A program made the position numbers and the translations under genes. A stretch of 19,787 nt of DNA from a virus: positions 81,629 through 101,415 of IMG/VR virus record IMGVR_UViG_3300010413_000009; one strand, 5' to 3'. Each line of letters starts with the position of its first letter. Position 1 is the first letter of the stretch. Shown here in pieces: positions 1 to 13,817 of this stretch. The notes beneath the pieces are model-generated. The model did no database searches, was not told the origin of the DNA, and saw nothing but the letters and a program-made list of their open reading frames with translations.

Positions 1-1588
1 ATTCACTGATGATTTTGTTCGCGAGTTTCGGATACCATTCCAAATCACGGTTCGCGATCGAGTCATCGTCGAACCAAACGAGCCAGTTCGTCTCGATTGG
101 GTTAGTTTCATCCCAAAACAGCTGCCTCATGGCTGGATATTTCTTCCTGTTGCCATCATTCAGCACCAAAGTATGCACTGTTCCGTCGTCACGCAGCCGT
201 TCAAGCCATGCGCGCGTCTCCATACAGAGCTGATTCGTCACAATCCGTATCTGTCGTCGCAGCGGAGACGTCGTTTTGAGAATGCTACCGAGGCACGCAC
301 GGTGCATGTCTGGGTAATTTCCGTACATCAGTATGCAAATCGTCATCGACCCGCCGATAATCGGGTCATCGAACGGGTCTTCGCGCAATATCGGTGTCAC
401 CGGCTTCGCCGCTTTGTGCCGCTGCTGCGAAAATGCGTTGATGAGTGTTGGTACGCCCGGCTCTGCGGGCGCTGCAGCCGGCTTTACGGCCTCCAAAAGA
501 GTCTCAAGAGGGGCAAAAAGGTCGATTTTCGTAGGATGGAGCACGCGTTTTGGCGGAATTGGTGCATTAGGTAGGGCCAAATCGCGCGGGCTGCCAATAG
601 CTGGCAGTGTTCCATCCTTGTAGTAGCTCATTACCGCCTCCAAGACGTGTTCTACAGTGATCATGCGCAAGCATTCGGGTATTGTCTGTCCAAAACCATC
701 GTCAACTGGCAGTTTACAGTATGATCGATGCTTGTCCTTTTGGGTATGTAAGACTTTGTTTTTCCAGCACCCGCGATCACGGCAGCATTCGAGCAGTCCC
801 TGGGTATGCAAATAGCGATGTGGCACGCGCACAGACTGTGAGTATGGGCCGAAATTCTCTACACCGACCACATTGACGTAGGCTTCCCACCACCAATGCT
901 CGCGCCCGCCGGCAATGCAGACACAAGGCTTGTCAAAGCACGCAGCCATGTGCATCAGACTCGTGATCGGACAGATAACGCCGTCTGAATGGTGTACAAG
1001 CCATACCAGATCGCGCAAATTCGTCTGTCCGAGTAGATCTAGCACACCATCGACAGGAGGATTGACGCAATCTCTGGAAGTTGCGCCGCATCGTATGAGT
1101 TTCAATCCCGCGTCGCGAAGCTTATTGATCAATTGCTGCCAGCGCGTTGCCGACCACGCCTTCGTTGTGAAGTCTGTCTTGCTGCCAGGCACGACAATCC
1201 AGTAGCGCTCAGCGATCGGGGAGTTCTTGTAGTGCCAATCATCAAGATGCAGGTCACCCTTCGGATACAAGCACGGTACTGGCATGCCTACGCGATGTTC
1301 GAACTCGCGATGGAACGCCGTGACGAAATGCAGTTTGTGGTGATTGGATAGCTTTATGTATCTCCCATAACCCAAATCAACACGCTTGATGTGCCTCGGG
1401 GGTCGACTATGATTGCCCGCGATGTATGGATTATGATCCCACAGTGTTTTGCAGTGTGTAGCAACATGAATTTCGTACTTACCGGGATACGTTAAGGCGA
1501 GATCTCTCGGTAACGCGGTCAGGCAAGTGATATCGCCAGGCGCACACCCGTGTGTAAGCAGGAGCGGTTCTGCTGAATTTGATCCCAT
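1..1588 (-). CDS. Fused glycosyltransferase, partial: N-terminal GT9 (heptosyltransferase-like) domain and C-terminal GT2-like domain. ATG at 1588; the C-terminus lies beyond the left window edge.
   Basis: Hand translation of the minus strand from the ATG at 1588 gives one open frame to position 1, which the ORF track omits because there is no in-window stop. The N-terminus reads MGSNSAEPLLLTHGCAPGDITCLTALPRDL ... WIVVPGSKTDFTTKAWSATRWQQLINKLRDAGLKLIRCGA ... LVHHSDGVICPITSLMHMAACFDKPCVCIAGG. This matches the GT9 pattern of a GD(v/i) N-terminal segment, a K/T-K-xW acceptor region and an xDxGxMHLAAAxxxPxVxLFG-like C-terminal segment. Further on comes SMTICILMYGNYPDMHRACLGSIL ... NWLVWFDDDS, a GT2-like N-terminal stretch with a DxD motif. 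The start lies 8 nt downstream of the preceding gene's stop. Confidence 0.6.
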   Translation of the reverse strand, partial: MGSNSAEPLLLTHGCAPGDITCLTALPRDLALTYPGKYEIHVATHCKTLWDHNPYIAGNHSRPPRHIKRVDLGYGRYIKLSNHHKLHFVTAFHREFEHRVGMPVPCLYPKGDLHLDDWHYKNSPIAERYWIVVPGSKTDFTTKAWSATRWQQLINKLRDAGLKLIRCGATSRDCVNPPVDGVLDLLGQTNLRDLVWLVHHSDGVICPITSLMHMAACFDKPCVCIAGGREHWWWEAYVNVVGVENFGPYSQSVRVPHRYLHTQGLLECCRDRGCWKNKVLHTQKDKHRSYCKLPVDDGFGQTIPECLRMITVEHVLEAVMSYYKDGTLPAIGSPRDLALPNAPIPPKRVLHPTKIDLFAPLETLLEAVKPAAAPAEPGVPTLINAFSQQRHKAAKPVTPILREDPFDDPIIGGSMTICILMYGNYPDMHRACLGSILKTTSPLRRQIRIVTNQLCMETRAWLERLRDDGTVHTLVLNDGNRKKYPAMRQLFWDETNPIETNWLVWFDDDSIANRDLEWYPKLANKIISE

Positions 1589-1596
1589 GAACAAAT

Positions 1597-2679
1597 TCAC
1601 CACTTCCAGATAGGACAGTGCTCCGTTGCTATCCTGATTTTGTTGCGCAGCGGCCGATTTTTGTCAAACGCGTCTAGCATCGCTGGCAAATTTGGCTCAT
1701 TGCCGTGTATTCCGCAACCGCAGCGCGTGCAATACCCGTCCCAGTAGTAAAAACATGGCTGACAGTGGCCGGTGTAGCAATCCTCCACTTCAGCGTCTGT
1801 CCGAAGTGGCTTTCCTTCTTGCAGCCAGTTGTTCAGCGCGATTTCGAGCAACTTCTTCTTCGAAAGAGGCGATGTTTCGCTCCGCGGGCGCCTGCCGAGC
1901 GGAGTCATCGCTTGTGGAAACGCAACACGCGGTCTGAATATCGGCAATGGGCCGTGCAGGGTAATACTTGGGTCAAAATCGGGCAAATCCACGCCCAAAA
2001 TACGTGATGCCGCGTCCAATTTGGCACTGATGGCGGCATCATCGGAGATCATGACGCGATTTAGGTGCAGCCAACACGGCTCGCACCATTCGAAGTGGTA
2101 TTTAGCCGGATTTTCCAGCCTGTCGAAGTATTTCACCCTGTCCGGTACCCGTATAAGGCGATGCGCCGCGTACGATTTGGCTGTCGCAGGGCCGCGCAAC
2201 CTGTTTTGCGCGATATTGCTCTTCTGTATTGCTGGTGCCTCGGTATCGAACGCCAGCCATGTAGGCCAAAATCGCTGCTCGCCGTCACGTAACTGCCCCC
2301 GCCCGGCTATATCATTGCCGTCTAGCAGCAAACTTACGTCCAGATTTCTTGTCGGCAGCGTGTCGCTCTGCAATACGGCAATAAATCGCTCTGGTTGGGT
2401 TATCGCATGCCGTTTTAATTGAGCAATGATGGCCCAGACACGCCGTGTCAGATGCAGCCCGCCAATATCCTCCGAGATTTCAAGGATTTCGACGCCAAGT
2501 TGTGCCGCTGCGTCGTCTAATAAGCATCTTTCACCGGCCGAAAAGGCTGGATCGCCGCCAAACGGGCCCTGAACGACGATAATTCGCGTCAAATCGGCCA
2601 CGTGTTTGCGTAAAAGGCTAATTTGCGCGGGTAACGTGCGGAATCTATGTGAAACCAACGTGTAAACTGCTGTGCTCAT
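1597..2679 (-). CDS. Hypothetical protein with a C-terminal Cys/His-rich cluster, putatively metal-binding. The start is placed at ATG 2679 rather than the track's 2775.
   Basis: The track ORF 1597..2775 begins with a TTG codon (caa at 2773-2775) and would overlap the upstream gene by 92 nt. The in-frame ATG at 2679 (MSTAVYTLVSH...) sits just after the upstream stop at 2684-2686. The C-terminal segment reads CYTGHCQPCFYYWDGYCTRCGCGIHG. No family was recognised from memory. It is co-directional and contiguous with its neighbours. Confidence 0.45.
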   Translation of the reverse strand: MSTAVYTLVSHRFRTLPAQISLLRKHVADLTRIIVVQGPFGGDPAFSAGERCLLDDAAAQLGVEILEISEDIGGLHLTRRVWAIIAQLKRHAITQPERFIAVLQSDTLPTRNLDVSLLLDGNDIAGRGQLRDGEQRFWPTWLAFDTEAPAIQKSNIAQNRLRGPATAKSYAAHRLIRVPDRVKYFDRLENPAKYHFEWCEPCWLHLNRVMISDDAAISAKLDAASRILGVDLPDFDPSITLHGPLPIFRPRVAFPQAMTPLGRRPRSETSPLSKKKLLEIALNNWLQEGKPLRTDAEVEDCYTGHCQPCFYYWDGYCTRCGCGIHGNEPNLPAMLDAFDKNRPLRNKIRIATEHCPIWKW

Positions 2680-2683
2680 GATC

Positions 2684-4534
2684 TCAACTGATTGATACCG
2701 TCGGAACTTGCCCTGTTGGGCTGCAGCCTTCCTGCACAATGTGCATCGTATATGTGCCTTGTGGCGGGCAACCAAACACCGCCGTGCGCGGCTCGCTCAT
2801 CCAGGCAATTTCCTCGAGATTTGTTTCAGGATCGCACGATGTGCCGCCAATCTCTAAGTACCAGACATCGCAATCGCACGTCAGATTGACCCAGATAATG
2901 ACACATTCATAGCCGCTGGGGTATTGTTCATCATAGTAGTAGCATGTACCGTCCCCATTCGTCGTCTTCGCCGGGGTGAATGTTGCATTGAAAATATCAC
3001 AATACCCGGTGAGCCCGCTTACAGAGATGGTTTTGGATGATGGGCATTCGCTACATGTCGAGCAGTCCGTGCAGCACGCCAATGATGGCGAACCTGTGGC
3101 CGAGCCGGTCGCCGTGAACGTAGCGGCACTCGGCAATTCGAGCTCGCCGACATCGCCCTCGTAGGCATCAGTAACTGGCGTGCAATTGCTATTGGTTGTG
3201 AAATACCATGTGCCTGTAGTGTCGCCGTTATCGACGTAGCACAAATACCAGCTCCCGCCGTATTGCTGATACTTCGGCATGCCGTTGTAATAGCCGACAA
3301 TGTTGTAGTAGCCAACAACACTCTCCGAGCATCCGCTACAGGTTACTTCATAACCACCGGAATCACACGGGCCGACGCTAGAACTCGACAACGAGCTTAA
3401 TGATTCTGATGAAAGACTACTAAACATCGAGGACGAAGACGACGGAGGGCATTCGCAGTACCAAACAATCTCGCCATAAAAGCGTCCCGTGATGCACGGA
3501 TGCCCGTGATGATCGGTACCGCTATAAAACCTCCACCAACCTTCACCGCCACCGCCGCCGCCTCCATCAGGACATTCGTCAGGATCACCCCAGGTGACCA
3601 GACATTCGCTAGCCATATCGTCTTTACATTGGCACCAGATCCACGCGCTGCAATCACCGGATACCGCGCAAGCGCCACCATCTTGCCCGAGAACATTATC
3701 AGGCGTGGTATCTGCAACGATCGGCAGCTTCCCGATTTGCCAAGCGAGTGTGGGAAAGTCTGGATATGGGCAGCTTTCGAGCGACTCGACAAGACTGCTT
3801 AGGCTACTGCTGAGGCTGCTGAGACTGCTGAGACTGCTGAGACTTGAGGATGGCGTACAGCAATAACCAACCATCAGCGTTTCGCCATAGAACCGCCCAA
3901 CTACTGGCGGCGGGCCAAGCTCATTGCAGCCACCCCGAAACACCCAATGACCGCTGCCAGTAGCTCCCGCTGGACACTCTTCTGTGTTTGGGCAATCAGG
4001 TTTGCATCCGGCGATCGTGTTGTACTCAGGATCCCCGGCGCATGGGCACCATGTCCAAACACCAAGTGCGCCCTCGCCGCATTCTTCCTCCGGAAAGATA
4101 AGCTGTGGTACGTAGGTGCTGCCTTGATAATCGCCAATGGGCGTATTCCAAGGAAACGGCGGCGATGGTATATCCGGACAGACGTATCCGTACTCTGATC
4201 TGTATGACCAATGACTGCCGCCAGAAATGGTCTCGGTAGGGCAGCGACAGATTATCGAGACCTCGCCATAGAACGTGCCGTCATAGCACGGCGGCCCAAG
4301 ACACGGATCACCGCACTTGATGCTCCACGTGCCCTCACCCGCACATGCAGTATCGCATGTGTCGTCCATCGGGCATGAGCTATCAGACCGTATGCACTCA
4401 CTTGTGAGCGGACCGCATGCGCACCAGACCCAGATAGAGCATTCTGAATCTTCGTTGGTCGGATATTCAGTATCCGTAGGCGTGTCGTTGAATGTCGGCC
4501 ACGTAGGTAACCCACACGTCGGATCGATCGGCAT
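2684..4534 (-). CDS. Very cysteine-rich 616-aa protein with a triplicated Cys/Trp module, Ser-Leu tandem repeats and a poly-Gly run. Candidate receptor-binding fibre or adhesin-like protein. No N-terminal signal peptide is evident.
   Basis: ATG at 4532-4534 follows directly after the upstream TAA: TAATGACCGATG. Three paralogous segments are present: (i) SIWVWCACGPLTSEC...TFYGEVSIICRCP, (ii) GVWTWCPCAGDPEY...GRFYGETLMVGYCCTPSSSLSSLSSLSSLSSSLSSL and (iii) SAWIWCQCKDDMASEC...GGGGGGGEGWWRFYSG...GRFYGEIVWYCECPPSSSSSMFSSLSSESLSSLSSSS. The C-terminal region carries additional CxC, CxxC and CDCD motifs. The protein contains dozens of Cys residues. Confidence 0.5.
   Translation of the reverse strand: MPIDPTCGLPTWPTFNDTPTDTEYPTNEDSECSIWVWCACGPLTSECIRSDSSCPMDDTCDTACAGEGTWSIKCGDPCLGPPCYDGTFYGEVSIICRCPTETISGGSHWSYRSEYGYVCPDIPSPPFPWNTPIGDYQGSTYVPQLIFPEEECGEGALGVWTWCPCAGDPEYNTIAGCKPDCPNTEECPAGATGSGHWVFRGGCNELGPPPVVGRFYGETLMVGYCCTPSSSLSSLSSLSSLSSSLSSLVESLESCPYPDFPTLAWQIGKLPIVADTTPDNVLGQDGGACAVSGDCSAWIWCQCKDDMASECLVTWGDPDECPDGGGGGGGEGWWRFYSGTDHHGHPCITGRFYGEIVWYCECPPSSSSSMFSSLSSESLSSLSSSSVGPCDSGGYEVTCSGCSESVVGYYNIVGYYNGMPKYQQYGGSWYLCYVDNGDTTGTWYFTTNSNCTPVTDAYEGDVGELELPSAATFTATGSATGSPSLACCTDCSTCSECPSSKTISVSGLTGYCDIFNATFTPAKTTNGDGTCYYYDEQYPSGYECVIIWVNLTCDCDVWYLEIGGTSCDPETNLEEIAWMSEPRTAVFGCPPQGTYTMHIVQEGCSPTGQVPTVSIS
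3794..3847. repeat. Imperfect tandem repeat of a 9-nt unit (gag[a/g]ctgct), about five to six copies, inside the Cys-rich CDS. It encodes (SSL)n.
   Basis: The sequence ...actgcttaggctactgctgaggctgctgagactgctgagactgctgagact... is read directly. The reverse-strand frame gives SSLSSLSSLSSLSSSLSSL. A nearby GGC/GGT codon run at about 3537-3560 encodes GGGGGGG. Confidence 0.8.
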
Positions 4535-4540
4535 CGGTCA

Positions 4541-4930
4541 TTAGTCCACGGGAACTGGCGGCGCTTTTACCGCTATGAATTTTGTGAGCTGGTCAACGTC
4601 GATGATGCCTATATGATACCGCCAGTTTTCCTTGCCGTCGAACCGCCAGCAGATAAGTAGCTGCGGTATGGAGTTTGACTTGGTGCGCTTCATGCATTCG
4701 GCTGCAACCTGCCTGTACTCGTCGATATCGATGTAGACGTAAACGATGTCGCGCAAGTTGCCGCGTTTCTCGAGCACCGGCAATACCTTATCCCGCACAT
4801 GATGACACGGTCCGCACCAAGTTGCGCCCAGCATCACGAGCAACGGCTCATCTTCCTTCAGGGCCTTCTGATATGCCTCAGTATACGGATTGGGCGCCGC
4901 GGCGAAGAGCAACAGGATTAGCGCGTACAT
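4541..4930 (-). CDS. Thioredoxin-fold thiol-disulfide oxidoreductase with a WCGPC active-site motif and an N-terminal hydrophobic signal peptide or membrane anchor.
   Basis: The translation reads M(SIM)YALILLLFAAAPNPYTEAYQKALKEDEPLLVMLGATWCGPCHHVRDKVLPVLEK... The segment ALKEDEPLLVMLGATWCGPC aligns with the canonical thioredoxin beta-strand plus WCGPC motif. The hydrophobic N-terminus replaces the first Trx strand, as in TlpA/ResA/DsbE-type membrane-anchored proteins. The track start at 4939 is a GTG (cac); the ATG at 4930 is preferred. The gene overlaps the stop of the upstream 339-aa gene (4936-4938) in either case. Confidence 0.65.
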   Translation of the reverse strand: MYALILLLFAAAPNPYTEAYQKALKEDEPLLVMLGATWCGPCHHVRDKVLPVLEKRGNLRDIVYVYIDIDEYRQVAAECMKRTKSNSIPQLLICWRFDGKENWRYHIGIIDVDQLTKFIAVKAPPVPVD

Positions 4931-4935
4931 GATGC

Positions 4936-5955
4936 TCACATCCCAGTGAAAAGGAGCCCAGTCTGAGGCGGCAGTATATGCCGCAGCATCTCCTCCAGAT
5001 TGTTCAACGAATCGTAGTGCCGCACTTTGATGACAATGCAGCTATCGAGATCGAGCTCGTGCGGAGGTTTCGTCAAAGCAGTGCCACCAGCCATGCCCGC
5101 AGGTACTATGACATTACTGCTAGCACCCAGTTCCATATCTGGCTGAAACTCGCTGATCTCAAAGGATTTGATGAGCGGCGTATTCGCAGGCGGCGTAGAG
5201 CCCACAGGCGCGCCCAGGACGTCGTCCTTGTCGATGCGGTAGATATTGCGCGTCGTGGCTAGAAAGCGCCCACGGCGATCTGTGGCGTCCACAAGGACTG
5301 TTTCCTGCCCGTCGGCAAGCGGCACACCCAGGAACGCGGCCACGGCCCGCTGGAGCCCCCCGGTAGTGGTACCTTTGACATGGCAATCGGCGATAGCATT
5401 GATAGTACGCTTGTACCGGAGATACTCCTCATGCCCGCCTTCGGTGGGTCTTGGAAAGTCGTAGATATAGCCGAGGTGCTTCTCGACGTACCCCCGATCG
5501 AATTGTGCGCGAATTCCCCACAGATAAGCCGTGTCATCGCTGTGCGATATCAAGCTGTCAGTGAATGGATCTTTCACGAATTCTATGATGGATTCGTGAA
5601 TTTGGTAGTCTATCCCTTCATGCAATACCCGCGTCGCGTTTGTGACACGATTCAGCAAGAGCGGCACGCTATACAGCCCCGGCGGCTTCGGAAACAGGCT
5701 CTCGTGATTGTCGCGCGGAAGTTCCAACAGAAATCGGCGCTCAGTATGGTACAGTGGTACCGACAGCCGCCCGGCGCATGCCAGCACTTCCTCGAGATTC
5801 TGGCGCTGCTGCGCGCAAAGCTCAAGATTCGCGCGTACGAGGGCTAGCAGCGGGCTATTACCGGCGTAATACTGTGTCCATAGTGAGCCCAAGAGGGCCA
5901 GAGTATCGCGCGCTTGCTTCTGGGAAAGCGTACCCTTTTGTGGTAGTTCAGGCAT
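4936..5955 (-). CDS. Hypothetical 339-aa protein. It is the first gene after the AT-rich gap and may be a fibre-attachment or baseplate-distal component.
   Basis: ATG at 5953-5955. The gene is co-directional and translationally coupled to the downstream thioredoxin gene. It sits immediately after a gp25-like/J-like pair, where gpI-like or fibre genes sit in P2/Mu-type tail modules. No motif was recognised. Confidence 0.4.
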   Translation of the reverse strand: MPELPQKGTLSQKQARDTLALLGSLWTQYYAGNSPLLALVRANLELCAQQRQNLEEVLACAGRLSVPLYHTERRFLLELPRDNHESLFPKPPGLYSVPLLLNRVTNATRVLHEGIDYQIHESIIEFVKDPFTDSLISHSDDTAYLWGIRAQFDRGYVEKHLGYIYDFPRPTEGGHEEYLRYKRTINAIADCHVKGTTTGGLQRAVAAFLGVPLADGQETVLVDATDRRGRFLATTRNIYRIDKDDVLGAPVGSTPPANTPLIKSFEISEFQPDMELGASSNVIVPAGMAGGTALTKPPHELDLDSCIVIKVRHYDSLNNLEEMLRHILPPQTGLLFTGM

Positions 5956-6133
5956 GGCTTACGTCAGTTTGTATTCGCTGCTATGTACGTATATTTTTGC
6001 ATTATTGAGTTACGCACGCTGTAAATCCTTTAGTACTAAAGACTTACAACGCGGCTAATAGATGCTAAATATTCGTGCATATCGCGGACCCCTCTCTTAC
6101 GTCAATTTCAAGAGTTTATTTAAGCGACACTTT
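5956..6133 (-). promoter_or_regulatory. AT-rich 178-bp intergenic spacer between the Baseplate-J-like gene and the accessory cassette. It is a candidate internal promoter or module boundary.
   Basis: It is the only sizeable non-coding gap in the operon and is markedly AT-richer than its surroundings (ttgtattcgctgctatgtacgtatatttttgcattattgag...). On the transcribed strand it contains TTGAAA, TTGACG and TTTACA-N15-TAATGC-like hexamers, but none gives a clean sigma-70 -35/-10 pair. Confidence 0.3.
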
Positions 6134-7594
6134 TCACGACACCGTTACGTCTTCCGGACGAAGGAAAGCCGCAGTGACCCGGTTGAGAATACGGTCGCCA
6201 CTGACCTGGACCTCCAGTATGGAATCGGGGTCTGGCGCGGCGGCTATGACCCGGAAATCGGTTGGTGCCTCGCCAATCGGCAATCCGTTAACGTAGTTGG
6301 CGATGGCCTGCTGAATTGCCGACTTGTCGGCTTTAGCGCCTCTGCGCAACTGCACGTCGACCTTTATCCACGCAGGTTTTGCAGCGAATACAAGGACGTC
6401 GAGGCCAGGCTGCCGGATTTCCGGGCCATCCAGATAGTCCTGAATAGTTGCAACGTGCGGCATCGCCAGCAGTGTCAGATCAAACCGGCGGAAGCTTTCG
6501 CCTTCGGTCAGCCCGAAAGTCTCGCCGAGTTGCTCGATCTGCAAGGTTGCCGTTTGGTAACGGCTGAATCGCGCCTGCTCATACGTTTCTTCGAGCACTT
6601 TGCAATCGCTGATGCGCAAATCGGCATCGACGGCATGTGCGTCTGCAACATGGTAGAAGCCCGGAGCAGCATCACTATCAACGAACACGCGCCAGACGGA
6701 GCGCTTCTCCTCTTTTGTCACCAATCTCCCCAGAGCAATACTGCCGATTTGCGCAGGGTATGGTTGGCTGCGCAGGTAGATATCGATCCTGCCGCCTTTC
6801 GAGATTCCGTCACTTCCCGCATCCCTCGTCATTTCAGGATCGCCGGCGCCAATGACGGCAATATCCATGATGTCGGGCACGCGCTTTCGTACGAGTGCTT
6901 TGATATTTCCGCGCCCTGCGAAACTCGGAGTAGCAATGCTGGTACGCATCTGCCTGATCAATTCCTCGTTCGATTGTGCGGCAACGCCGCCTGTAAAATC
7001 ATGCGTGGCATAGGCCATATCGAAGCCTACCGGACGGATTGCAGGAACAAGAACATCATGGCGCTTGAGGTTGGCGTCGGGATGCATCGAAGCAGCTACC
7101 ACAGGCACTTGTATCGTGAACTTGCCGTCATCGCGCTCCACAGCGGCGACAGAGTGCCGCGTGAGGCCTACCGACCCGGGCGGCTTAACGCTAATTGGTT
7201 CGCTGACATAGAACAGCTGACCACGCGCGCGGAATTTGCTGTTGAGACCAAAATTGAGCCCGCTGCACCGCGTAAGCACAATAGTGATAGTCCCGGTTGC
7301 CTTGGTTGCCATACGCCGAGAGACACCGTAATTGGACGCTAATGCATCGACAGCCGCGTCGTCGGCCAGCGATGGATCTAGCGCGAGCTCCATCGCAGAT
7401 AGCGAGCGCCGCAGCCGCTCGATAGCCGCCATACTCGCGCCCTGCAACATGGCGTGCAGCCCGGTTACTAGATCGCCAACGACACCGCGACGTACATTCA
7501 AGTCCGGGCATTCCTCGGCGACAAATTGTGCGATCAGATCATGCGCGGCGGTTACCTGCGCATCATCTAATTCATCTGGATTCGGCCAATACAT
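6134..7594 (-). CDS. Baseplate J-like (gp6/gpJ-like) baseplate wedge protein.
   Basis: It is a 486-488-aa protein immediately downstream of a gp25/GPW-like gene, matching the canonical W-J order. The track start at 7600 is TTG (caa). The ATG at 7592-7594 (MYWPNPDELDD...) is preceded by AGGAG-N6 (aacctAGGAGttgcagATG), which overlaps the upstream TAG stop. The family call rests mainly on size and synteny; no diagnostic motif is recalled. Confidence 0.5.
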   Translation of the reverse strand: MYWPNPDELDDAQVTAAHDLIAQFVAEECPDLNVRRGVVGDLVTGLHAMLQGASMAAIERLRRSLSAMELALDPSLADDAAVDALASNYGVSRRMATKATGTITIVLTRCSGLNFGLNSKFRARGQLFYVSEPISVKPPGSVGLTRHSVAAVERDDGKFTIQVPVVAASMHPDANLKRHDVLVPAIRPVGFDMAYATHDFTGGVAAQSNEELIRQMRTSIATPSFAGRGNIKALVRKRVPDIMDIAVIGAGDPEMTRDAGSDGISKGGRIDIYLRSQPYPAQIGSIALGRLVTKEEKRSVWRVFVDSDAAPGFYHVADAHAVDADLRISDCKVLEETYEQARFSRYQTATLQIEQLGETFGLTEGESFRRFDLTLLAMPHVATIQDYLDGPEIRQPGLDVLVFAAKPAWIKVDVQLRRGAKADKSAIQQAIANYVNGLPIGEAPTDFRVIAAAPDPDSILEVQVSGDRILNRVTAAFLRPEDVTVS

Positions 7595-7603
7595 CTGCAA
7601 CTC

Positions 7604-8032: not shown

Positions 8033-8469
8033 GATGTATCAAGCAGCTCTTGTACGTAGCCTTCGACGGATGCTTTGTGGACGCCGTACGTTACATTACC
8101 ATGCGCTCCGCGGCGTGCCGCAAGCAACATGAGCGCGCGCGTCGGCGTTCTGTGCCGATCCCTGAACGCACGCTCCATCATGCCCATGTAGCAAATCTCG
8201 AGGTTGCGCCCCATTGCTACTTTGCTTTTGTTCTCCCCGGTGCCCGCATATTCCGCACTGTAACCAGAATTGGACGTAGTCCGATTGAACGGATCGCCCA
8301 TATTCGGAATGTCGACGGGGTTGAACGTCCACCCGCCTGTATATCCGGCAGGAATCATCCAGAAGCGCTGCGTGCCCGGCGGCGATTGCTGTAGATAACC
8401 GGAGATCGCCTGTCCGAATGTCGCCATGTCGTCCATTAGCGACGAAAATTGTGGGTTTACACTGGCCAT
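8029..8469 (-). CDS. Hypothetical 146-aa protein, a possible small baseplate or spike component.
   Basis: ATG at 8467-8469 overlaps the TAA of the sigma gene as TAATG. Its stop overlaps the gp25-like start as ATGA. Its position is immediately upstream of the gp25-like gene. Confidence 0.4.
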   Translation of the reverse strand: MASVNPQFSSLMDDMATFGQAISGYLQQSPPGTQRFWMIPAGYTGGWTFNPVDIPNMGDPFNRTTSNSGYSAEYAGTGENKSKVAMGRNLEICYMGMMERAFRDRHRTPTRALMLLAARRGAHGNVTYGVHKASVEGYVQELLDTS

Positions 8470-9209
8470 TAGAGGATCTCCAGGGATTCACGCTGATCGA
8501 TTTTTCGCTGTATTTGTGCCATTCTGTGGCTCACGGCAGCTGGGCTGATTTTCAGCTGTGATGCGACCGCAATCGGTCTCGTTTTCGGATGTCCGTGCAA
8601 TCCGAGCACGCGCTCCATAATGAACTGGTTCGTAGGGTCAAGATCATCATAGACGAATTCCAGCCATGCGTCATGCTCTTCAGTGATGGGGCGCACGCGC
8701 GGATCGTACATACCAGCCCCTTCCTCGCCTGGACGCGTAATTGTGCCTGTGGCAAGCGGACGTCCGCTGCCGCGAATGTATTTCAACCGCTTCATCGACA
8801 GCCCGGTGTAGTCGGCGATTTCGTTATCGGATGGTGGACGTCCAAGCCGTTCCTCCAATTCCCGTGCCGCCGCCTCTGAACGCATCTGGTCGAGCGCAAC
8901 CTGCTCTGGGACGCGAATGATCTGTCGATGTTGTGATGCTAGCCGGCGCAATCGCTGCAATCGCGACATCAGATGTGTTTTAAGTGGGCCTTTGGCCGGG
9001 TCGTAAGAGGCCATTGCGTTTGCGGCCAGCCGCTTTGCCTGCGACTTCATGGTTACGCCGCGGGCTGACGGGCCGGCATAAGTTCGCAGTGCTGTATTCA
9101 GCACCGGATCGATAGCTTTCAGCATACGCCCCATGTTAGTTGGCGAAGGATCGTCTAGCCACGTGCTGTATGGTTTCTGCAGTTCTGGTTCCAGTAGGTT
9201 CTTTGGCAT
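8469..9209 (-). CDS. Sigma-70 family RNA polymerase sigma factor of small (group 3/4-like) size, embedded within the tail gene cluster.
   Basis: The segment KTHLMSRLQRLRRLASQHRQIIRVPEQVA fits the region 2.4/3.0 pattern (RxIRxPxH). The segment LGRPPSDNEIADYTGLSMKRLKYI resembles region 3/4.1. The C-terminal NQFIMERVLGLHGHPKTRPIAVASQLKISPAAVSHRMAQIQRKI is a region 4.2 helix-turn-helix. The start has a GAGGT Shine-Dalgarno 7 nt upstream (TGAGGTAGCCACGATG), which overlaps the upstream gene's TGA stop. Confidence 0.7.
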   Translation of the reverse strand: MPKNLLEPELQKPYSTWLDDPSPTNMGRMLKAIDPVLNTALRTYAGPSARGVTMKSQAKRLAANAMASYDPAKGPLKTHLMSRLQRLRRLASQHRQIIRVPEQVALDQMRSEAAARELEERLGRPPSDNEIADYTGLSMKRLKYIRGSGRPLATGTITRPGEEGAGMYDPRVRPITEEHDAWLEFVYDDLDPTNQFIMERVLGLHGHPKTRPIAVASQLKISPAAVSHRMAQIQRKIDQRESLEIL

Positions 9210-9219
9210 CGTGGCTACC

Positions 9220-10896
9220 TCATGTACAGCTGCCAGTTGTGCTTGGGCACGTTGCAGACGCTGTCAGGTTGTAATCGCCTGCAAACACATTGCTATACAG
9301 TGGATGCGCCGTCACCGTATAGTTATCGCTGTTGTGCTCGGCCTCAGTACGCACATGTGCCATTCGGAAGGCTGTATAGCATCGCTGATGCTGCGCATCG
9401 AAGAAATGGGTAGTGCGCACCACGGTGCCGTAGCGCTTTTCTCCGGCGCCGGGTGGTTGTGACGAACCAGTCGTTCCCTGAAACGAAATAGTCGATCCTG
9501 GCGAGATATCAAAGCGTACGGGCCCAACGATATCACCCCAACGGTTCTTGAGTAGTTCGTTGACGTACATAGCATGGGCCAGTTCGTCGAGCAATATTTC
9601 TGCATCCAGCTTCTGATCGACTGGATCTGGCACGACCGCGTTAGGTGTGCCGGCGCCTGGATGGTTATGCGCATTGCCGCGGACGCTATTGATACCAGTA
9701 GAATCCGCTGTGAACACTGATGGGATCACGAACTCAGAGAGATACTTAGGTGCCCGCTTCAGGATAACGATCCCATCGTTCCTGCCGACGTACATTCCGC
9801 CGATGGTGTCATCATTAACCGCGTCGTCAGGGATAAGGTTGCCGCCAGCACGCGAACCGTGCCCAGCAAAGTAGCCGACAGCGCGGGTAGCCCGGGGCAG
9901 GAACGCATTCATGTCCTGCTGCGACATATCGATCGACTCGATCGTGGCCGCCGCAGCGTATGGATTCCACTCAGCACGCAGCCCGGGAATGAACGGCACG
10001 ATAGCCGCGCGCTCAGGATACGGAATCAGCTTGAAGAAGAACTTCGGCGATAGCTCATTCACGATCTTATCCCAGAACGTGGTATGCGCCATCGCGTGCA
10101 TTGTGTTCGAGATATTGGAAGGTGTGAGCGTCGTCACAGCGATATCATCGGCAATGGCCATTGCTGCGATGTCCGCATCAACCCCGCCTGGGATTTTGAA
10201 TTGTAACGTCTCACTACCAGTATTGATCAGGCTAAGCGCCGCTTTCGCCTCGTGATTCACGCTATCGTTCGTATCGTTGCCGCCTTTCGCCTGGAACTGT
10301 ACGATGTTAATTCGATCTTCACAGGCAAGTTCATTGAACCATGGAAGTAATGCATCGCCCCAGAGATCTACCTGTATGTTCGTGGCCGTTACGACAGACT
10401 GCGCGGCCGTGCGCGCCACGAAATGCGTCAACGCGCCACCAGACGGATCTAAAGCAATCGCGGAATTGAAGATGAAATGCGTCGGATTCTGTGGGTGACT
10501 CGTTGCACTCAGCGTCGAGGCGAAGCTTAATGCACTAAGCCAGTGTGTACCCTCTACAGTCATGGCGTATCCATTATGCACGCGCCGATAACCAACGCCA
10601 GTAACCCATCCACAGAACAGTACGTACGTCCCGGCGGGCCATACGCGGGGCGTACCGGTCGCTGTCGATGTCACCTTGACTACAAGTGGAATTTGCAGGG
10701 GTGTATTGAGCCCGGCAGCAGTATGAGCTGTCGATGCCGTGTACGGAGGTAGCGCAGTGTAGCCGACGGGGAGCACGGCAGTGCAGCTAGGAATTCGATT
10801 CATCTCGTACGAGACTTCGAATTGCACGAGCTCCACTGTGACCGGCGTTGCGCCGATCTCCGCCCAGAGATCGAAATCGATTGCTACATAACTCAT
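9220..10896 (-). CDS. Hypothetical 558-aa structural protein, a candidate baseplate hub or central component.
   Basis: The long ORF is co-directional, and its ATG at 10894-10896 overlaps the upstream stop as ATGA. Its composition is rich in Thr, Ser, Ala, Gly, Asn and Val and is beta-like. It occupies the position between the tape-measure candidate and the gp25/J pair, where hub proteins sit in Mu/P2-like modules. No motif was recognised. Confidence 0.4.
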   Translation of the reverse strand: MSYVAIDFDLWAEIGATPVTVELVQFEVSYEMNRIPSCTAVLPVGYTALPPYTASTAHTAAGLNTPLQIPLVVKVTSTATGTPRVWPAGTYVLFCGWVTGVGYRRVHNGYAMTVEGTHWLSALSFASTLSATSHPQNPTHFIFNSAIALDPSGGALTHFVARTAAQSVVTATNIQVDLWGDALLPWFNELACEDRINIVQFQAKGGNDTNDSVNHEAKAALSLINTGSETLQFKIPGGVDADIAAMAIADDIAVTTLTPSNISNTMHAMAHTTFWDKIVNELSPKFFFKLIPYPERAAIVPFIPGLRAEWNPYAAAATIESIDMSQQDMNAFLPRATRAVGYFAGHGSRAGGNLIPDDAVNDDTIGGMYVGRNDGIVILKRAPKYLSEFVIPSVFTADSTGINSVRGNAHNHPGAGTPNAVVPDPVDQKLDAEILLDELAHAMYVNELLKNRWGDIVGPVRFDISPGSTISFQGTTGSSQPPGAGEKRYGTVVRTTHFFDAQHQRCYTAFRMAHVRTEAEHNSDNYTVTAHPLYSNVFAGDYNLTASATCPSTTGSCT

Positions 10897-11357
10897 TTGC
10901 GTGCGCGCTCCGTGCAGTAAACCATAGCCAGTACCAGCGCGCCAAGCTTGTATGGTAATTGGTCACTGTTCTTCCACAACTCGAACAATATTTCGTTCGT
11001 CTCTTCCGCGGTATCGCCGAACAATTCCCGCTCACTTGCCGGAGTGAGCACAGCTGCGAGTTGCGGAACGAATGCTGCCAGATCATCGCAATCTGATCCA
11101 AAATGAATATTGTCGAATGGCAGATACGTTATGCGCGGGTCTGGTGCCAACACGAGATCTTCAAGTTCGGTGGCGTGCACCAACTGCATAAGCTGCCTGA
11201 TGCGCAACTGATTGGCGGGCGTGCGACCGAATAGCACGACTTTGAGCTTGTCAACTACTTCCGGAACTGGCATCGGAACAAAGTCCGGGTCGACATACTC
11301 GTCGCTGGGATAGCCCGGCGGCATGTTTTGTAGCAGTGTTCTTACGTGGTTGATCAT
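10893..11357 (-). CDS. Hypothetical 154-aa protein.
   Basis: ATG at 11355-11357 overlaps the upstream stop as ATGA. The gene is co-directional and lies in the tail module. Confidence 0.4.
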   Translation of the reverse strand: MINHVRTLLQNMPPGYPSDEYVDPDFVPMPVPEVVDKLKVVLFGRTPANQLRIRQLMQLVHATELEDLVLAPDPRITYLPFDNIHFGSDCDDLAAFVPQLAAVLTPASERELFGDTAEETNEILFELWKNSDQLPYKLGALVLAMVYCTERARK

Positions 11358-11806
11358 GATGGTATCGTCTTGAAATTGAATTGGAATCGCGCCAGTCGCG
11401 ACTCTGGATTCATGTACTGAAACGTACCGCCCACAAGGAAACCAACAGCTACGTATCCGGCGAATTGCAGCGCCAGTGCTGTACCGGTCGCGGCAATCCT
11501 ATAGTTGGTATAGTAGGTAATAGCTGTCGTAAGGCCGTGAACGAAATTGGCGCATTCCAGCCCCGCGATGCCCGTGACCACAACATCACCCATGCGCTCG
11601 CCGAATACATAGACGTACGTATAGTTGCGCAGCGTGAGCAGAAACTGGTAGTTGCCGGCTGTGCTCGCGCTAACACCCGCTAACGCTGCATTCTGCGCAG
11701 AAACACCTTGCGACCAGTTAGCCATCTGAAAGTTGATCACACCGGCAGTTGCCGTTGAGAGCACTTTCATAACGCCTGAACCGACGCCACCGAACATGTA
11801 AGCCAT
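11354..11806 (-). CDS. Hypothetical protein of about 150 aa with a hydrophobic stretch. The start is re-assigned to ATG 11806.
   Basis: The track ORF 11354..12022 would overlap the upstream 668-aa gene by about 210 nt. The internal ATG at 11804-11806 (MAYMFGGVGSG...) lies 5 nt after the upstream TAA and is preceded by AGGAG-N9 (ggcgcAGGAGcgtaacataATG). The segment IAATGTALALQFAGYVAVGFLVGG looks like a transmembrane region. Confidence 0.4.
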   Translation of the reverse strand: MAYMFGGVGSGVMKVLSTATAGVINFQMANWSQGVSAQNAALAGVSASTAGNYQFLLTLRNYTYVYVFGERMGDVVVTGIAGLECANFVHGLTTAITYYTNYRIAATGTALALQFAGYVAVGFLVGGTFQYMNPESRLARFQFNFKTIPS

Positions 11807-11810
11807 TATG

Positions 11811-13817
11811 TTACGCTCCTGCGCCCATAGGCTGCGCTGCAACTCCGTGGACGTCCCCGCCCGCGTTACCCGCGTCCTTCCACATATCTCCCCAGTTCGT
11901 GATCTCGACCGGTGTGACGCCGCTGCCGCCCTGTCCCGGCCGTGTTGGCGCATCGTTTTGAAGCGGGTTCTCCTTGGCGGGCTCATTTCCGGCGCGGTCA
12001 CCCCGCATTGCCTTCCTGTCACGATCGTACCCGCCGAAAAAGCGCGCTAAAAGCTTGCCTGCATCATCTGCTTCACCGACGCCGCGCATGATACGCCCGA
12101 CCGGACCCTCCTGTGCCTCTGCCGCATGCTTTTGGTCTTCTGCCGCAGCGGCCTCCGCCTCCTCCGTGGTCTGCCTAATCGAGCCCAGCATCTCCTTGCT
12201 ATGCAGTGCTGCCGCATGTCCGGCACCCCCGCGGTAACCGCGACTGATTGCGGCTTCGCCGGCGGCACCCATTGCGACCGTGGCTGCAGACTCCGCACGA
12301 CTGCCGCGCAATCCCATCTTATTGAGTCGCTTGATGACAGCTTCGCGCACTTCCTCCTGAGATTGTCCTGCGGTATCGCGGATAACATCGGTGACGCCCT
12401 GCCCGAGCTGCATTGCGCGGCGTGCGCCCATGTGTCCGCGCGTGCCTAGCTGGTTAGCGACTGCCCGGCTCATGAAGTCACCGACATCAGCATCCCACTG
12501 CGTTTCGCGTACCGCACCGGCTACTTCAGCGCCGTACAGCCTGCGGTTTTCATTGCGCTGCTGTAGCATAGTCAAAGCATCAGTCATGTTGACACCGCTG
12601 CCGCGCATCAAATTGCGGAACTGTCCAGGTTCCGTAATGTTGAATTCGCCTTTATCTTTGAGGTTCGTGTACGCCTTGAACGCCTGCGAACCCTTACGCA
12701 ACATTCCAGTCTCGCCCATGCGCATCAGCGCCGACGCCATATTGCCGGATTCACTCTGGCCTGCCTGCACAGTGAGCAGAGCATCCTGCTGCATCAGTTC
12801 AGATGCACTCACGCCTGCCGCCCGGATAAGTCCCTGTCCCTTATCTTTCGCGTAAGCGCCGAATGCCATAGCATGCTGTCCAGCACCGACACCTTGCAGC
12901 ACGTCACCGCCGAGTTCCACCGCACGCATACCCGCCGCCTGCTGAAGACCAAGTGCCTCACCAGCCGAGATATTAGCGCGCTGCGACAGCTGCTTGAACA
13001 TTCGCACTTGATGTTCGAGAACATCATTATCGACGCCGCGGCCAAAGCCGCCCATCGTCATGACGTCTAGTGTCTGTAACATTTGGGTGGGTGGCAATGC
13101 TGCAAATGGACCGCCAAGATCGCGGACGGCGCTCGCGGAATGCGAAATCGAACGGCCGAACTCATGTCGTTGTTCCTTCGACATATTGAGATAATCAGCC
13201 GGCCCGACACCCATATCCTGCGCTGCGCGTACCAGACCAGAAACACGGCCTTTGCGGAAACCACGAGTCTCTTCAGGACGCAATTCGCCCATCTGCGCCG
13301 TAATCTGGCTTGTTGCAGCGCGCAGCTGCTGCTGGTTCATCCCGGTCCCGGGCATATCTGGAATCTGCATGCGATTACGGAGCATTTCCGAGTAATTCGC
13401 TGCGGCCTGGCCACCACCCATACCCAATTCATCGAGGACGTCGCCAGGCATCATCGTGCCGAGAAACGGCATTGCCGCTCCCATCATTCGGCCAAAATCG
13501 GCTGTTTGGGCGAATGCCGATGCTTCCTGGCCAATCTTGGGAGTTAGCAGCCCCATCCCGACGAGACCGCCGCCGGGTTGAGTGCCCATGATGAAATCTT
13601 GGAAGCCCTTGGCCGCCTCAGGCGCACCGATATCCATGATGGACTGCATCTGGCCTGACGAGAACTCACGGGCACGGCGCGTATCCATGATGTTCTGGTT
13701 CGGCTGCCACTGGCCAAAGTCCATGCCTTTCGGCATAATCTGCGGGCCGAGCATCTGGATGACCATATCCAGCAACGGATTGCCAGTATAGCTTGCGTCA
13801 GGACGCCAGGCGGGCAT
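11811..13817 (-). CDS. Low-complexity 668-aa protein rich in Met, Gly, Ala and Gln. It may be a tape-measure or internal virion protein.
   Basis: The composition shows runs such as MGGAMPFLGTMMPGDVLDELGMGGGQ and MQIPDMPGTGMNQQQL. It lies between the tube-side genes and the baseplate genes. ATG at 13815-13817 is preceded by GGGGAAG. No catalytic motif was seen. Confidence 0.4.
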   Translation of the reverse strand: MPAWRPDASYTGNPLLDMVIQMLGPQIMPKGMDFGQWQPNQNIMDTRRAREFSSGQMQSIMDIGAPEAAKGFQDFIMGTQPGGGLVGMGLLTPKIGQEASAFAQTADFGRMMGAAMPFLGTMMPGDVLDELGMGGGQAAANYSEMLRNRMQIPDMPGTGMNQQQLRAATSQITAQMGELRPEETRGFRKGRVSGLVRAAQDMGVGPADYLNMSKEQRHEFGRSISHSASAVRDLGGPFAALPPTQMLQTLDVMTMGGFGRGVDNDVLEHQVRMFKQLSQRANISAGEALGLQQAAGMRAVELGGDVLQGVGAGQHAMAFGAYAKDKGQGLIRAAGVSASELMQQDALLTVQAGQSESGNMASALMRMGETGMLRKGSQAFKAYTNLKDKGEFNITEPGQFRNLMRGSGVNMTDALTMLQQRNENRRLYGAEVAGAVRETQWDADVGDFMSRAVANQLGTRGHMGARRAMQLGQGVTDVIRDTAGQSQEEVREAVIKRLNKMGLRGSRAESAATVAMGAAGEAAISRGYRGGAGHAAALHSKEMLGSIRQTTEEAEAAAAEDQKHAAEAQEGPVGRIMRGVGEADDAGKLLARFFGGYDRDRKAMRGDRAGNEPAKENPLQNDAPTRPGQGGSGVTPVEITNWGDMWKDAGNAGGDVHGVAAQPMGAGA

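Follow-up and report, generated by a model that had tools for sequence, protein, structure and literature searches.

A cysteine-module fiber-like gene linked to GT9 glycosyltransferase genes in the tail module of uncultured large myoviruses, a candidate system for tail fiber O-glycosylation

Why does the tail module of a phage end in a run of cysteine-rich and glycosyltransferase-fold genes? The question is raised by IMG/VR virus record IMGVR_UViG_3300010413_000009, of which positions 81,629 to 101,415, a stretch of 19,787 nucleotides (nt) referred to here as the window, were analyzed. The long open reading frames (ORFs) of the window all lie on the minus strand and together form a contractile-tail module. 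Five genes occupy the distal end of its baseplate and fiber module (positions 1 to 5955, minus strand), and they encode a 339-amino-acid (aa) protein, a thioredoxin-fold protein, a 616-aa Cys- and Ser-rich mosaic protein, a 360-aa protein, and a fusion of a GT9 and a GT2-like glycosyltransferase (GT) domain. A sequence-only reading of this DNA had described five codirectional genes, which were found here on the minus strand at the coordinates given, and had offered two explanations, a maturation and glycosylation system for a receptor-binding fiber or adhesin and a lysogenic-conversion module acting on the host lipopolysaccharide (LPS). Phage-encoded O-glycosylation of the Ser linkers of a tail fiber is the best reading of the genes analyzed here, and we put its chance of being right at about even. 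Window coordinates given below refer to the minus strand.

Linkage of the Cys-module and glycosyltransferase genes

The Cys-module protein and GT9 are encoded side by side in every assessable locus, deeply divergent phages included (P0068 was left out, its locus being too short), and in at least four divergent phage groups the GT9 gene comes immediately after the gene for the Cys-module protein. In L024, L033, and L034, fiber proteins with a single Cys module, which are either collagen-repeat proteins or LamG tipped, are followed by a GT9 that is 45 to 46% identical to that of the window. L024, an unrelated 74-kb phage contig, carries a collagen/Cys-module/poly-Ser gene, a 4-nt spacer, a gene for a 329-aa GT9 (46% identical), a gene for a separate 318-aa GT2-like protein (30% identical), and then homologs of two small genes, p143 and p110. 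L034 has the same arrangement, again with the GT2-like protein encoded by a gene of its own and with p143 and p110 homologs after it, and L033 has a Cys-module/LamG protein followed by GT9. In L015, the GT9-GT2 fusion gene comes after a collagen-repeat fiber gene and a gene for a double GT4 protein.

The linkage extends to gene fusion. P0041, recovered in two independent assemblies (L021 and L022), is a single complete ORF that contains three Cys modules and GT9, and its neighbors are a 194-aa ORF that we read as fiber-like (no PHROGs match) and, downstream, homologs of p143 and p110. The P0041 contigs were obtained by exact look-up, and scans of metagenome and viral contigs gave no match. A second fusion, P0009, combines the Cys-rich protein with the 4-Cys domain that ends the 360-aa protein (48% identity; E value, 1e-17), and a GT9 gene directly follows the fusion gene. 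The deep conservation of adjacency and the two independent fusions therefore suggest that the fiber-like protein and the transferases act together physically.

In contigs of the relatives, the order baseplate J gene, 339-aa gene, thioredoxin gene (where present), Cys-rich gene, 360-aa gene, GT9-GT2 gene, p143, and p110 recurs. The five-gene synteny of the window is thus found in related phages, with the thioredoxin and 360-aa genes not in all of them (L010 is without the 360-aa gene), and no relative was found in which the cassette is detached from the tail module.

The p143 and p110 genes always follow the GT9/GT2 genes, distant lineages included (L001, 15301 to 16072; L024, 13508 to 14219; L021, 3878 to 4667; and L015, 12124 to 12887, where the pair was judged by eye), and they lie outside the window. 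p143 encodes approximately 135 to 158 aa and is 61 to 76% identical within the lineage, and p110 encodes approximately 96 to 119 aa with a CxxC or CC motif within a basic stretch. Neither has a family match. They may be part of the same functional module.

The 616-aa Cys-rich protein

The putative tail fiber or receptor-binding protein (2684 to 4534; 616 aa, 51 Cys) is laid out as three paralogous Cys modules, a "mid" domain, and a C-terminal domain (CTD). The triplication described by the sequence-only reading was borne out, with the hidden Markov model (HMM) of each module matching all three (independent E values of 1e-8 to 1e-15). The modules, each of about 75 aa, have the consensus C..W.WCPC...CP...G.W...GPPC..GRFYGE....C.CP and were delimited with the module HMM at 4226 to 4447 (module 1, aa 30 to 103), 3839 to 4084 (module 2, aa 151 to 232), and 3437 to 3667 (module 3, aa 290 to 366). 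Ser linkers follow module 2 (SSSLSSLSSLSSLSSSLSSL; 3791 to 3850, aa 229 to 248) and module 3 (3377 to 3442, aa 365 to 386). Over 83 modules, the Ser content of the 20 aa beyond the module end is 30%, versus 10% protein-wide. The mid domain (3125 to 3364, aa 391 to 470; G.Y...G.YNG.P.Y...W...W) is a portable unit of about 85 aa that also lies inside module 2 of several homologs; it is widespread, is repeated in very large proteins, and has no Pfam family match. The CTD (2687 to 3118, aa 473 to 616; approximately 145 aa) also occurs as free-standing proteins of 130 to 155 aa and at the C termini of other proteins.

The distribution of Cys within the modules bears on where the protein ends up. 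Two Cys positions covary: the opening Cys of the module and the one that begins the terminal CxC are both present or both absent in 69 of 72 instances, and they have been lost jointly on at least six separate occasions. A disulfide pair would be expected to show such covariation, which therefore points to a protein whose final location is extracellular. Zinc fingers were also considered for the modules and were set aside, since the paired loss favors at least one disulfide; the four invariant Cys are ambiguous in this respect. Because of the Cys covariation and its place after the baseplate wedge genes, the 616-aa protein is best read as a tail fiber or receptor-binding protein with a putative place in the virion. 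It has no signal peptide or transmembrane (TM) segment.

Fifteen homologs of the 616-aa protein were found, with identical synteny in all, and a profile search of 1.84 billion representative proteins returned 137 clusters for its architecture and domains. The full architecture is restricted to the lineage of the window. Single Cys modules with poly-Ser are present in collagen-repeat proteins of other phages, which carry a PHROGs tail-fiber label by way of the collagen part, and a single Cys module is also present in a protein with a LamG-type tip. Those relatives of the 616-aa domains that bear PHROG or Pfam labels are virion, fiber, or surface proteins. The protein itself is 31 to 44% identical to its relatives, versus 55 to 71% for the neighboring GT, and in L010 the mid domain and CTD are swapped for a LamG-like C terminus, as judged by eye. 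Beyond the thioredoxin and the collagen repeats, PHROGs gave no match to the cassette proteins or to the related proteins of other lineages. Three portable, unannotated domains of fiber type, namely, the Cys module, mid domain, and CTD, are defined here; none of them is represented in Pfam or PHROGs.

On L017, a JGI contig that is 99.95% identical to the window, the JGI calls at 8065 to 9918 split the intact 616-aa ORF into pieces of 99 and 235 aa. The L017 DNA has no stop codon or frameshift there, and the encoded Cys-rich protein is identical to that of the window. This annotation artifact would therefore hide the Cys-rich protein from protein databases.

The glycosyltransferase-fold proteins

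The GT fusion gene starts at 1588 and runs past the window end, with 529 of its 667 aa in the window; the missing end and the full length were taken from L017, on which the JGI call (11014 to 13017) shortens the protein to 561 aa. The GT-B-fold, heptosyltransferase-like GT9 domain (584 to 1588, aa 1 to 335) that the sequence-only reading had recognized is confirmed by a match to PF01075 at aa 83 to 237 (50.1 bits versus a cutoff of 22; E value, 3e-13), and PF01075 is above threshold in five other lineages as well. Profile matches of GT9 in the PDB are 1psw (WaaF; E value, 0.0036) and 2gt1, 2h1f, and 6dfe (WaaC; E value, 0.05), and hhalign pairs GT9 residues 109 to 227 with WaaC residues 159 to 280, with K143 falling on the Lys of the WaaC DKHW motif. 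The AxGD motif (D19) is invariant in eight sequences from four lineages; its D19 lies opposite G12-D13 of WaaC and WaaF in low-scoring local alignments only, the hhalign alignment having no N-lobe coverage. The AxGD motif, K143, GGRE, and a cluster of five invariant Cys after GGRE (C268, C269, C274, C291, and C306) are conserved across four deep lineages. The equivalog models of LPS heptosyltransferases and of TibC gave 18 to 30 bits against cutoffs of 135 to 569, and a phmmer search of the full GT protein against the PDB gave no match. GT9 is equidistant from LPS heptosyltransferases and TibC in these scores, so that neither the type of acceptor nor the donor can be read from its sequence.

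The GT2-like (GT-A) domain starts at about aa 406 and reaches the window edge at aa 529 (1 to 373). The earlier assignment of this half to GT2 holds in part. Pfam scores are below threshold (PF13641, 20.8 to 22.3 bits versus 27; PF00535, 13.6 versus 23.3), with the PF13641 E values of 1.5e-4 to 4.4e-4 being consistent in three full-length homologs, and an FDDDS motif is invariant, as WFDDDS in the lineage of the window, with WFDDNC in the L024 homolog. Few genes of the region are as well conserved as the GT fusion, and with its invariant motifs the enzymes look active.

The gene for the 360-aa protein (1597 to 2679) lies between the Cys-rich and GT genes, with spacers of 4 nt and 8 nt, respectively. 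Its product has no family match, and PDB sequence and profile searches returned chance-level hits only. The AlphaFold2 (AF2) model is poor, with a predicted local distance difference test (pLDDT) score of 48.9, most of residues 1 to 100 scoring 61 to 77 with a beta-alpha-beta pattern; listed under this low-confidence model are GnT-I, GlfT2, and SunS, as well as sugar nucleotidyltransferases. The N-terminal 250 aa or so would thus resemble a GT-A, nucleotide-diphospho-sugar-transferase fold. GT-A enzymes carry a DxD motif after strand 4, and the 360-aa protein has an invariant Asp, D106, after its strand 4. The last 80 residues (1600 to 1839) hold four invariant Cys (C306, C309, C317, and C355). 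The protein is tentatively regarded as a transferase or a sugar-activating nucleotidyltransferase.

In one sublineage, an Endonuclease_7 (homing-endonuclease-like) gene lies between a 354-aa gene of the 360-aa type and the GT9-GT2 gene (L018, 11053 to 11610; L019, 5887 to 6444; NCBI metagenome-assembled genome [MAG] contig, 116 kb).

Proposed mechanism and alternatives

The genes can be assembled into the following mechanism. The 616-aa fiber would consist of three small modules, disulfide bonded in the released virion and joined by flexible Ser-rich linkers, followed by two distal binding-type domains. Soluble transferases, namely, GT9, the fused GT2-like domain and, in the lineage of the window, the GT-A-like 360-aa protein, would, in the cytoplasm, dock on Cys modules that have already folded and then O-glycosylate the adjacent Ser linkers. 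GT9 would add the first sugar, putatively heptose from host ADP-heptose as the family default, and both GT-A-type domains would extend the glycan, with the 4-Cys C-terminal domain of the 360-aa protein as a candidate docking domain for the fiber. The glycosylated fiber would be mounted on the baseplate via the J/339 wedge, and the thioredoxin would be an optional exported add-on that is dispensable for glycosylation. More tentatively, and with a likelihood that we place clearly below even, the module may be widespread in phages, with GT9 O-glycosylating poly-Ser next to a Cys module, perhaps with heptose, and GT2, GT-A, or GT4 partners extending the glycan. Of the fiber-maturation explanation offered earlier, the core survives through the adjacency of the Cys module and GT9, the fusions, and the fiber-type relatives; its accessory 339-aa gene, its role for the thioredoxin, and its analogy of GT9 with TibC are weakened or lost.

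Several points weigh against fiber glycosylation. The acceptor, the sugar, and the virion location are putative. GT9 is no closer to TibC than to the LPS enzymes, the GT2-like assignment is subthreshold in Pfam, and the GT-A fold of the 360-aa protein comes from a low-confidence model. The Ser linkers are not universal, with at least 30% Ser after 38 of the 83 modules and none in the fused P0041. A 185-kb phage, L015, keeps the GT9-GT2 fusion without any Cys module; its gene run, with a methyltransferase at the start, comprises a collagen-repeat fiber gene, a double GT4 protein, and the fusion, together with several unannotated ORFs that share an N-terminal motif and are read as fiber-like. 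The CTD and Cys-module HMMs gave no match in L015, and the small Cys protein there is not claimed as a CTD homolog. Finally, adjacency and fusion would also fit if the GT were a component of the fiber.

The alternative that survives best, although we consider it unlikely, is that the soluble GT9, GT2-like, and GT-A-like enzymes remodel the LPS core, or some other glycan of the host envelope, in infected or lysogenic cells, for instance to exclude superinfecting phages or to keep released virions from readsorbing to debris. The neighborhood of fiber genes would then be coincidental, or the receptor-binding protein and an enzyme that modifies the receptor would have evolved together. Among PDB and NCBIfam entries, the GT9 C-lobe is indeed most similar to WaaF, WaaC, and RfaQ, and LPS core transferases are likewise soluble, peripheral, cytoplasmic enzymes, as would be the cassette enzymes, which have no TM segments. 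L015, with GT9-GT2 and no Cys-module protein, also fits, as does a lone GT9 relative beside integrases and a transposase in a Pirellulales chromosome (below). However, the equivalog scores given above fall far below their cutoffs, the contigs are of jumbo-phage size, and envelope remodeling leaves both the in-frame fusions (GT9 with Cys modules and the 360-aa C-terminal domain with the Cys-rich protein) and the strict gene order in distant lineages unexplained. Lysogenic conversion of LPS, the second of the two explanations offered earlier, gained no positive support; a Gtr-type module (GtrA, GtrB, a polytopic GtrC, and an integrase or attachment site) was looked for, and its membrane components and integrase are absent from the 20-kb phage loci.

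Somewhat less probable still is that the GT-fold proteins are fiber or virion components, with sugar clefts used for receptor binding, or fiber chaperones, and perform no catalysis on the fiber. In P0041, GT9 takes the position of the distal mid domain and CTD of the window protein, and in P0009, the C terminus of the fiber is the C-terminal domain of the 360-aa protein. Genes adjacent to the fiber gene in myoviruses also often encode assembly chaperones, such as gpG of P2 and gp38 and gp57 of T4. On the other hand, the GT fusion is better conserved than the fiber (55 to 71% versus 31 to 44% identity), and receptor-binding tips usually show the opposite. The AxGD, K143, GGRE, and DDD positions are invariant over deep divergence, and since no nucleotide-sugar donor is present outside the cell, invariant motifs of catalytic type imply an enzyme activity inside it.

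Hypermodification of the phage DNA, in which the transferases would glycosylate bases as in T4 and the Cys modules would be metal-binding nucleic-acid-binding domains, is very improbable, even though multiple GTs of large phages often modify DNA according to the account of Pyle et al. (2024) given in PMC12619734 and four nearly invariant Cys per module could bind metal. The genes lie inside the baseplate and fiber block, away from replication genes, the modules occur in collagen-repeat fiber proteins with LamG-type tips, and the paired gain and loss of two Cys is a sign of a disulfide rather than of a metal site. Moreover, GT9 falls outside the families that, to our knowledge, modify DNA.

The thioredoxin and the 339-aa protein

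The thioredoxin-fold gene (4541 to 4939) encodes 132 aa from a GTG at 4939 or 129 aa from an ATG at 4930. The overlap with the stop codon of the 339-aa gene noted earlier holds for the GTG start and is lost with the ATG start called by JGI, and TAATGACCGATG was read directly between the thioredoxin and Cys-rich genes, as had been described. The protein, with a WCGPC motif, is a thioredoxin by PF00085 (33.9 bits versus a cutoff of 23.5; E value, 3.4e-8) and is weakly matched in PHROGs (E values of 3e-4 and 7e-3); it is not a TrxA equivalog (TIGR01068, 36.8 bits versus 96.8). Its N terminus is hydrophobic, in line with the signal anchor proposed for it (Kyte-Doolittle 13-residue maximum, 2.68), and it is the only cassette protein with such a segment, the others having a 19-residue maximum of at most 1.29. 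These features suggest that the thioredoxin is exported or anchored in the membrane with its C terminus outside.

Among the relatives, tblastn found a thioredoxin homolog in L001 alone, so that the gene is present in two sublineages. The L001 homolog keeps the hydrophobic N-terminal segment and has CPPC in place of WCGPC. The sublineages of L004, L007, L008, L010, L018, and L020, all of which have the Cys-rich protein, are without it, and the thioredoxin is thus an optional member of the cassette. Since it is probably exported, is found in only two sublineages, and accompanies a Cys-rich protein that has no signal peptide, it is unlikely to be the disulfide catalyst of the fiber as had been envisaged; both the oxidase and the isomerase versions of this role were set aside on topology and patchy distribution.

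Both in the window and in every relative, the next gene downstream of gp6/J is the 339-aa gene (4936 to 5955 in the window). Its product has no sequence-family match, and PDB sequence and profile searches returned chance-level hits only. The AF2 model (pLDDT, 70.9) has T4-like gp6/gp7 and Mu gp47/gp48 lower in its list, and a Foldseek search of the model found nothing significant. With moderate confidence, we regard the protein as the baseplate wedge ("triplex"; gp7, XkdT, or Mu gp48 class) partner of J, so that the view of the whole cassette as accessory no longer applies, the 339-aa gene being most likely a core baseplate gene. The baseplate-wedge, GT-A-like, and GT2-like fold assignments are all weaker than the GT9 membership.

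Source lineage and host

Relatives of the cassette are carried in IMG/VR as viral contigs of 57 to 226 kb from many samples, and with the same gene order in these relatives, the source of the window is an uncultured lineage of large or jumbo myoviruses in which the cassette is fixed to the tail module. Metagenomic homologs were found for each cassette protein in protein searches. The IMG/VR loci were recovered only with the GT alignment as the query; scanning IMG/VR with the Cys-rich or the 339-aa protein by itself gave no match, and none of 50,697 GenBank phages matched the window by megablast or the Cys-rich protein by tblastn. Horizontal acquisition of the cassette as an island was considered and set aside, as the GC content is uniform across the window and the gene set is fixed in the lineage.

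In bacteria, a first scan of 185,579 species genomes with narrow GT patterns found no GT relative, and a wider genome scan found eight stand-alone GT9 relatives, with GTDB MAG contigs L025 to L030 as the GT9 contigs of the scan. None of these stand-alone loci has the Cys-rich, 360-aa, or GT2 genes. Five of the eight matches to the phage GT9 clade are in MAGs of Planctomycetota, and the hosts are therefore probably members of this phylum. In a Pirellulales contig, two integrase genes and a DDE transposase gene flank the lone GT9 gene, which also has a DUF1559 gene beside it and peroxiredoxin-type genes nearby, and these flanks suggest a mobile origin for that GT9 copy; DUF1559 genes are typical of Planctomycetota. 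A host chromosomal island independent of the phage, which had been raised as an alternative, was not found, the Planctomycetota MAGs showing lone GT9 genes only. In an Aquaspirillum MAG (L031), homologs of a fiber gene and of p143 lie beside the GT9 gene.

Comparison with known systems

TibC, a GT9-related enzyme, heptosylates Ser residues of TibA and forms a stable complex with this substrate (PMC4358343). Like TibC and AAH, which act on TibA and AIDA-I, respectively, the phage GT9 is a GT9-related GT-B enzyme whose gene lies beside one for a repetitive protein of surface or adhesin type. In TibC, Cys339, Cys342, Cys358, and Cys370 of a C-lobe insertion bind Fe; in the phage enzyme, five invariant Cys follow GGRE in the equivalent region, with a different spacing. 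The phage GT9 is not a member of the TibC/AAH family, and in the analogy drawn by the sequence-only reading the resemblance is mechanistic only. TIGR04414 gave 22.3 bits versus 200 (E value, 5.6e-5; C-lobe only), and a PDB sequence search with the phage GT9 found no match to TibC. The phage enzyme lacks the N-terminal beta-barrel of TibC (residues 1 to 97), for which its GD motif at residue 19 leaves no space, and unlike TibC, it is fused to a GT2-like domain. Its putative substrate is a Cys-module/poly-Ser fiber and not a beta-helix autotransporter.

With WaaC, WaaF, and WaaQ, the phage GT9 shares the Pfam family PF01075 (CAZy GT9); its C-lobe aligns with WaaC and WaaF, including the conserved Lys and a glycine-rich strand, and by low-scoring local alignments its GD motif is at the same N-terminal position. 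Unlike these enzymes, it scores far under every equivalog cutoff and is encoded in a fiber module and not in an LPS operon, and its N-lobe, the acceptor-binding lobe, is left unaligned by hhalign.

Mycobacteriophage GTs glycosylate capsid and tail-tube proteins, as Freeman et al. (2023, Cell Host Microbe) are cited in PMC12619734, and in the proposed system, too, GTs encoded by a phage would modify structural proteins of that same phage inside the cytoplasm of its host. According to the same citation, the targets in mycobacteriophages are the C termini of capsid and tail-tube subunits. The target proposed here, in contrast, is a putative fiber with dedicated Cys modules and Ser linkers. The mycobacteriophage enzymes are not known to be GT9, and their hosts are Actinobacteria. 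The phage system would work most like TibC/TibA and mycobacteriophage virion glycosylation and belongs to neither.

In eukaryotes, O-glycosylation of folded Cys-rich repeats is carried out by POFUT1 and POGLUT1 on epidermal growth factor (EGF) repeats and by POFUT2 on thrombospondin type 1 repeats. By analogy, a soluble phage transferase would read a small folded disulfide-type module and glycosylate Ser or Thr in or beside it, although the enzyme families, compartment, and organisms are unrelated.

The gene order of the window resembles W-J-I-H-G of P2, gp46-47-48 of Mu, and gp25-gp6-gp7 of T4, with a gp25 slot (taken by a 142-aa gene assigned by position only, without a family match), J, the wedge partner, a fiber-like gene, and accessory genes. 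It differs from them in that the fiber slot holds a Cys- and Ser-rich mosaic dissimilar to known fibers, the chaperone slot holds glycosyltransferase-fold proteins, and a sigma-factor-like gene lies inside the baseplate block.

If the broader reading of a widespread module holds, it would be the first system of its kind to glycosylate the tail fibers of tailed phages, and TibC-type heptosylation of proteins would gain its first counterpart in viruses. If fiber glycosylation is correct, it would extend GT9 protein glycosylation from bacterial adhesins to viruses. Tail fibers, which set the host range, could then bear phage-made glycans, which would add a layer to receptor recognition, fiber stability, and evasion of host or environmental proteases. 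Although the phages are uncultured, the linkage supplies a concrete, cloneable candidate pair of enzyme and substrate, and very few phages are known for Planctomycetota, the likely host phylum.

Remaining tail genes and the intergenic insert

The other genes of the tail module, all on the minus strand, are a sheath fragment (phrog_279), a 153-aa gene in the tube position, genes of 951, 401, and 136 aa without an assignment, a 668-aa Gly/Ala/Met-rich gene that looks tape-measure-like (11811 to 13817), genes of 154 and 558 aa, a 246-aa sigma-like gene, genes of 146 and 142 aa, and the baseplate J gene (6134 to 7600). The J-like gene upstream of the cassette was recognized correctly by the sequence-only reading (PF04865 E value, 1.9e-8; phrog_6 E value, 8.6e-22). 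The 951-aa ORF (15410 to 18265), which has no Pfam or PHROG match, lies between the tube-position and tape-measure-like genes, where myoviruses normally carry small chaperone genes. A 222-aa ORF with a GTG start (11354 to 12022) shares about 210 nt with the end of the tape-measure-like gene. On this DNA, JGI instead calls a gene of 150 aa that begins only after the stop codon of the larger gene, and the 222-aa form is probably an artifact of ORF listing. The 246-aa gene within the baseplate block (8469 to 9209) is similar to sigma-70 region 3 (PF04539 E value, 2.9e-6), has weak NCBIfam matches to RpoD, FliA, and SigF, and, at 65 to 75% identity across sublineages, ranks with the best-conserved genes there.

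Between J and the 339-aa gene lies an AT-rich insert of 178 bp (5956 to 6133), whose GC content of 38.8%, versus approximately 55% for the window, confirms the earlier description. Two copies of TGACGTAAG are present in it (6096 to 6104 and 5958 to 5966) and nowhere else in the window, with a hairpin-prone segment between them and the second copy ending 2 nt ahead of the ATG of the 339-aa gene. The corresponding motif pair, AAnTGACRTAAG at a spacing of 138 to 141 nt, is also found at this place in L001, L007, L017, L018, and L020 (inserts at L001 8444 to 8593, L007 8785 to 8933, L018 6716 to 6863, and L020 1970 to 2115). It brackets the insert in six sublineages, the second copy usually ending 2 to 3 nt before the start codon, and the motif is nearly confined to this place over the roughly 20 kb of each locus. 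Between the copies lies a stem-loop whose sequence differs among loci. The insert is missing wherever J abuts the 339-aa gene. A scan for sigma-70 promoters and terminators found no enrichment over shuffles, and an Rfam search over the window gave no match. The motif pair could serve the phage as a promoter or operator, or it could be the trace left by a small insertion. Translational coupling of the cassette to the tail operon, which the sequence-only reading had claimed, does not hold in the window, where the 178-nt gap with the motif pair intervenes; in L008 and L010, the first cassette gene does abut or overlap J.

Past the left end of the window, approximately 1.5 kb downstream of the GT gene, several sublineages (L017, 14575 to 16290; L001, 16744 to 18486; also L007 and L018) carry a gene for a TROVE/Ro60 and vWA protein of 571 to 580 aa that is 64 to 69% identical among them.

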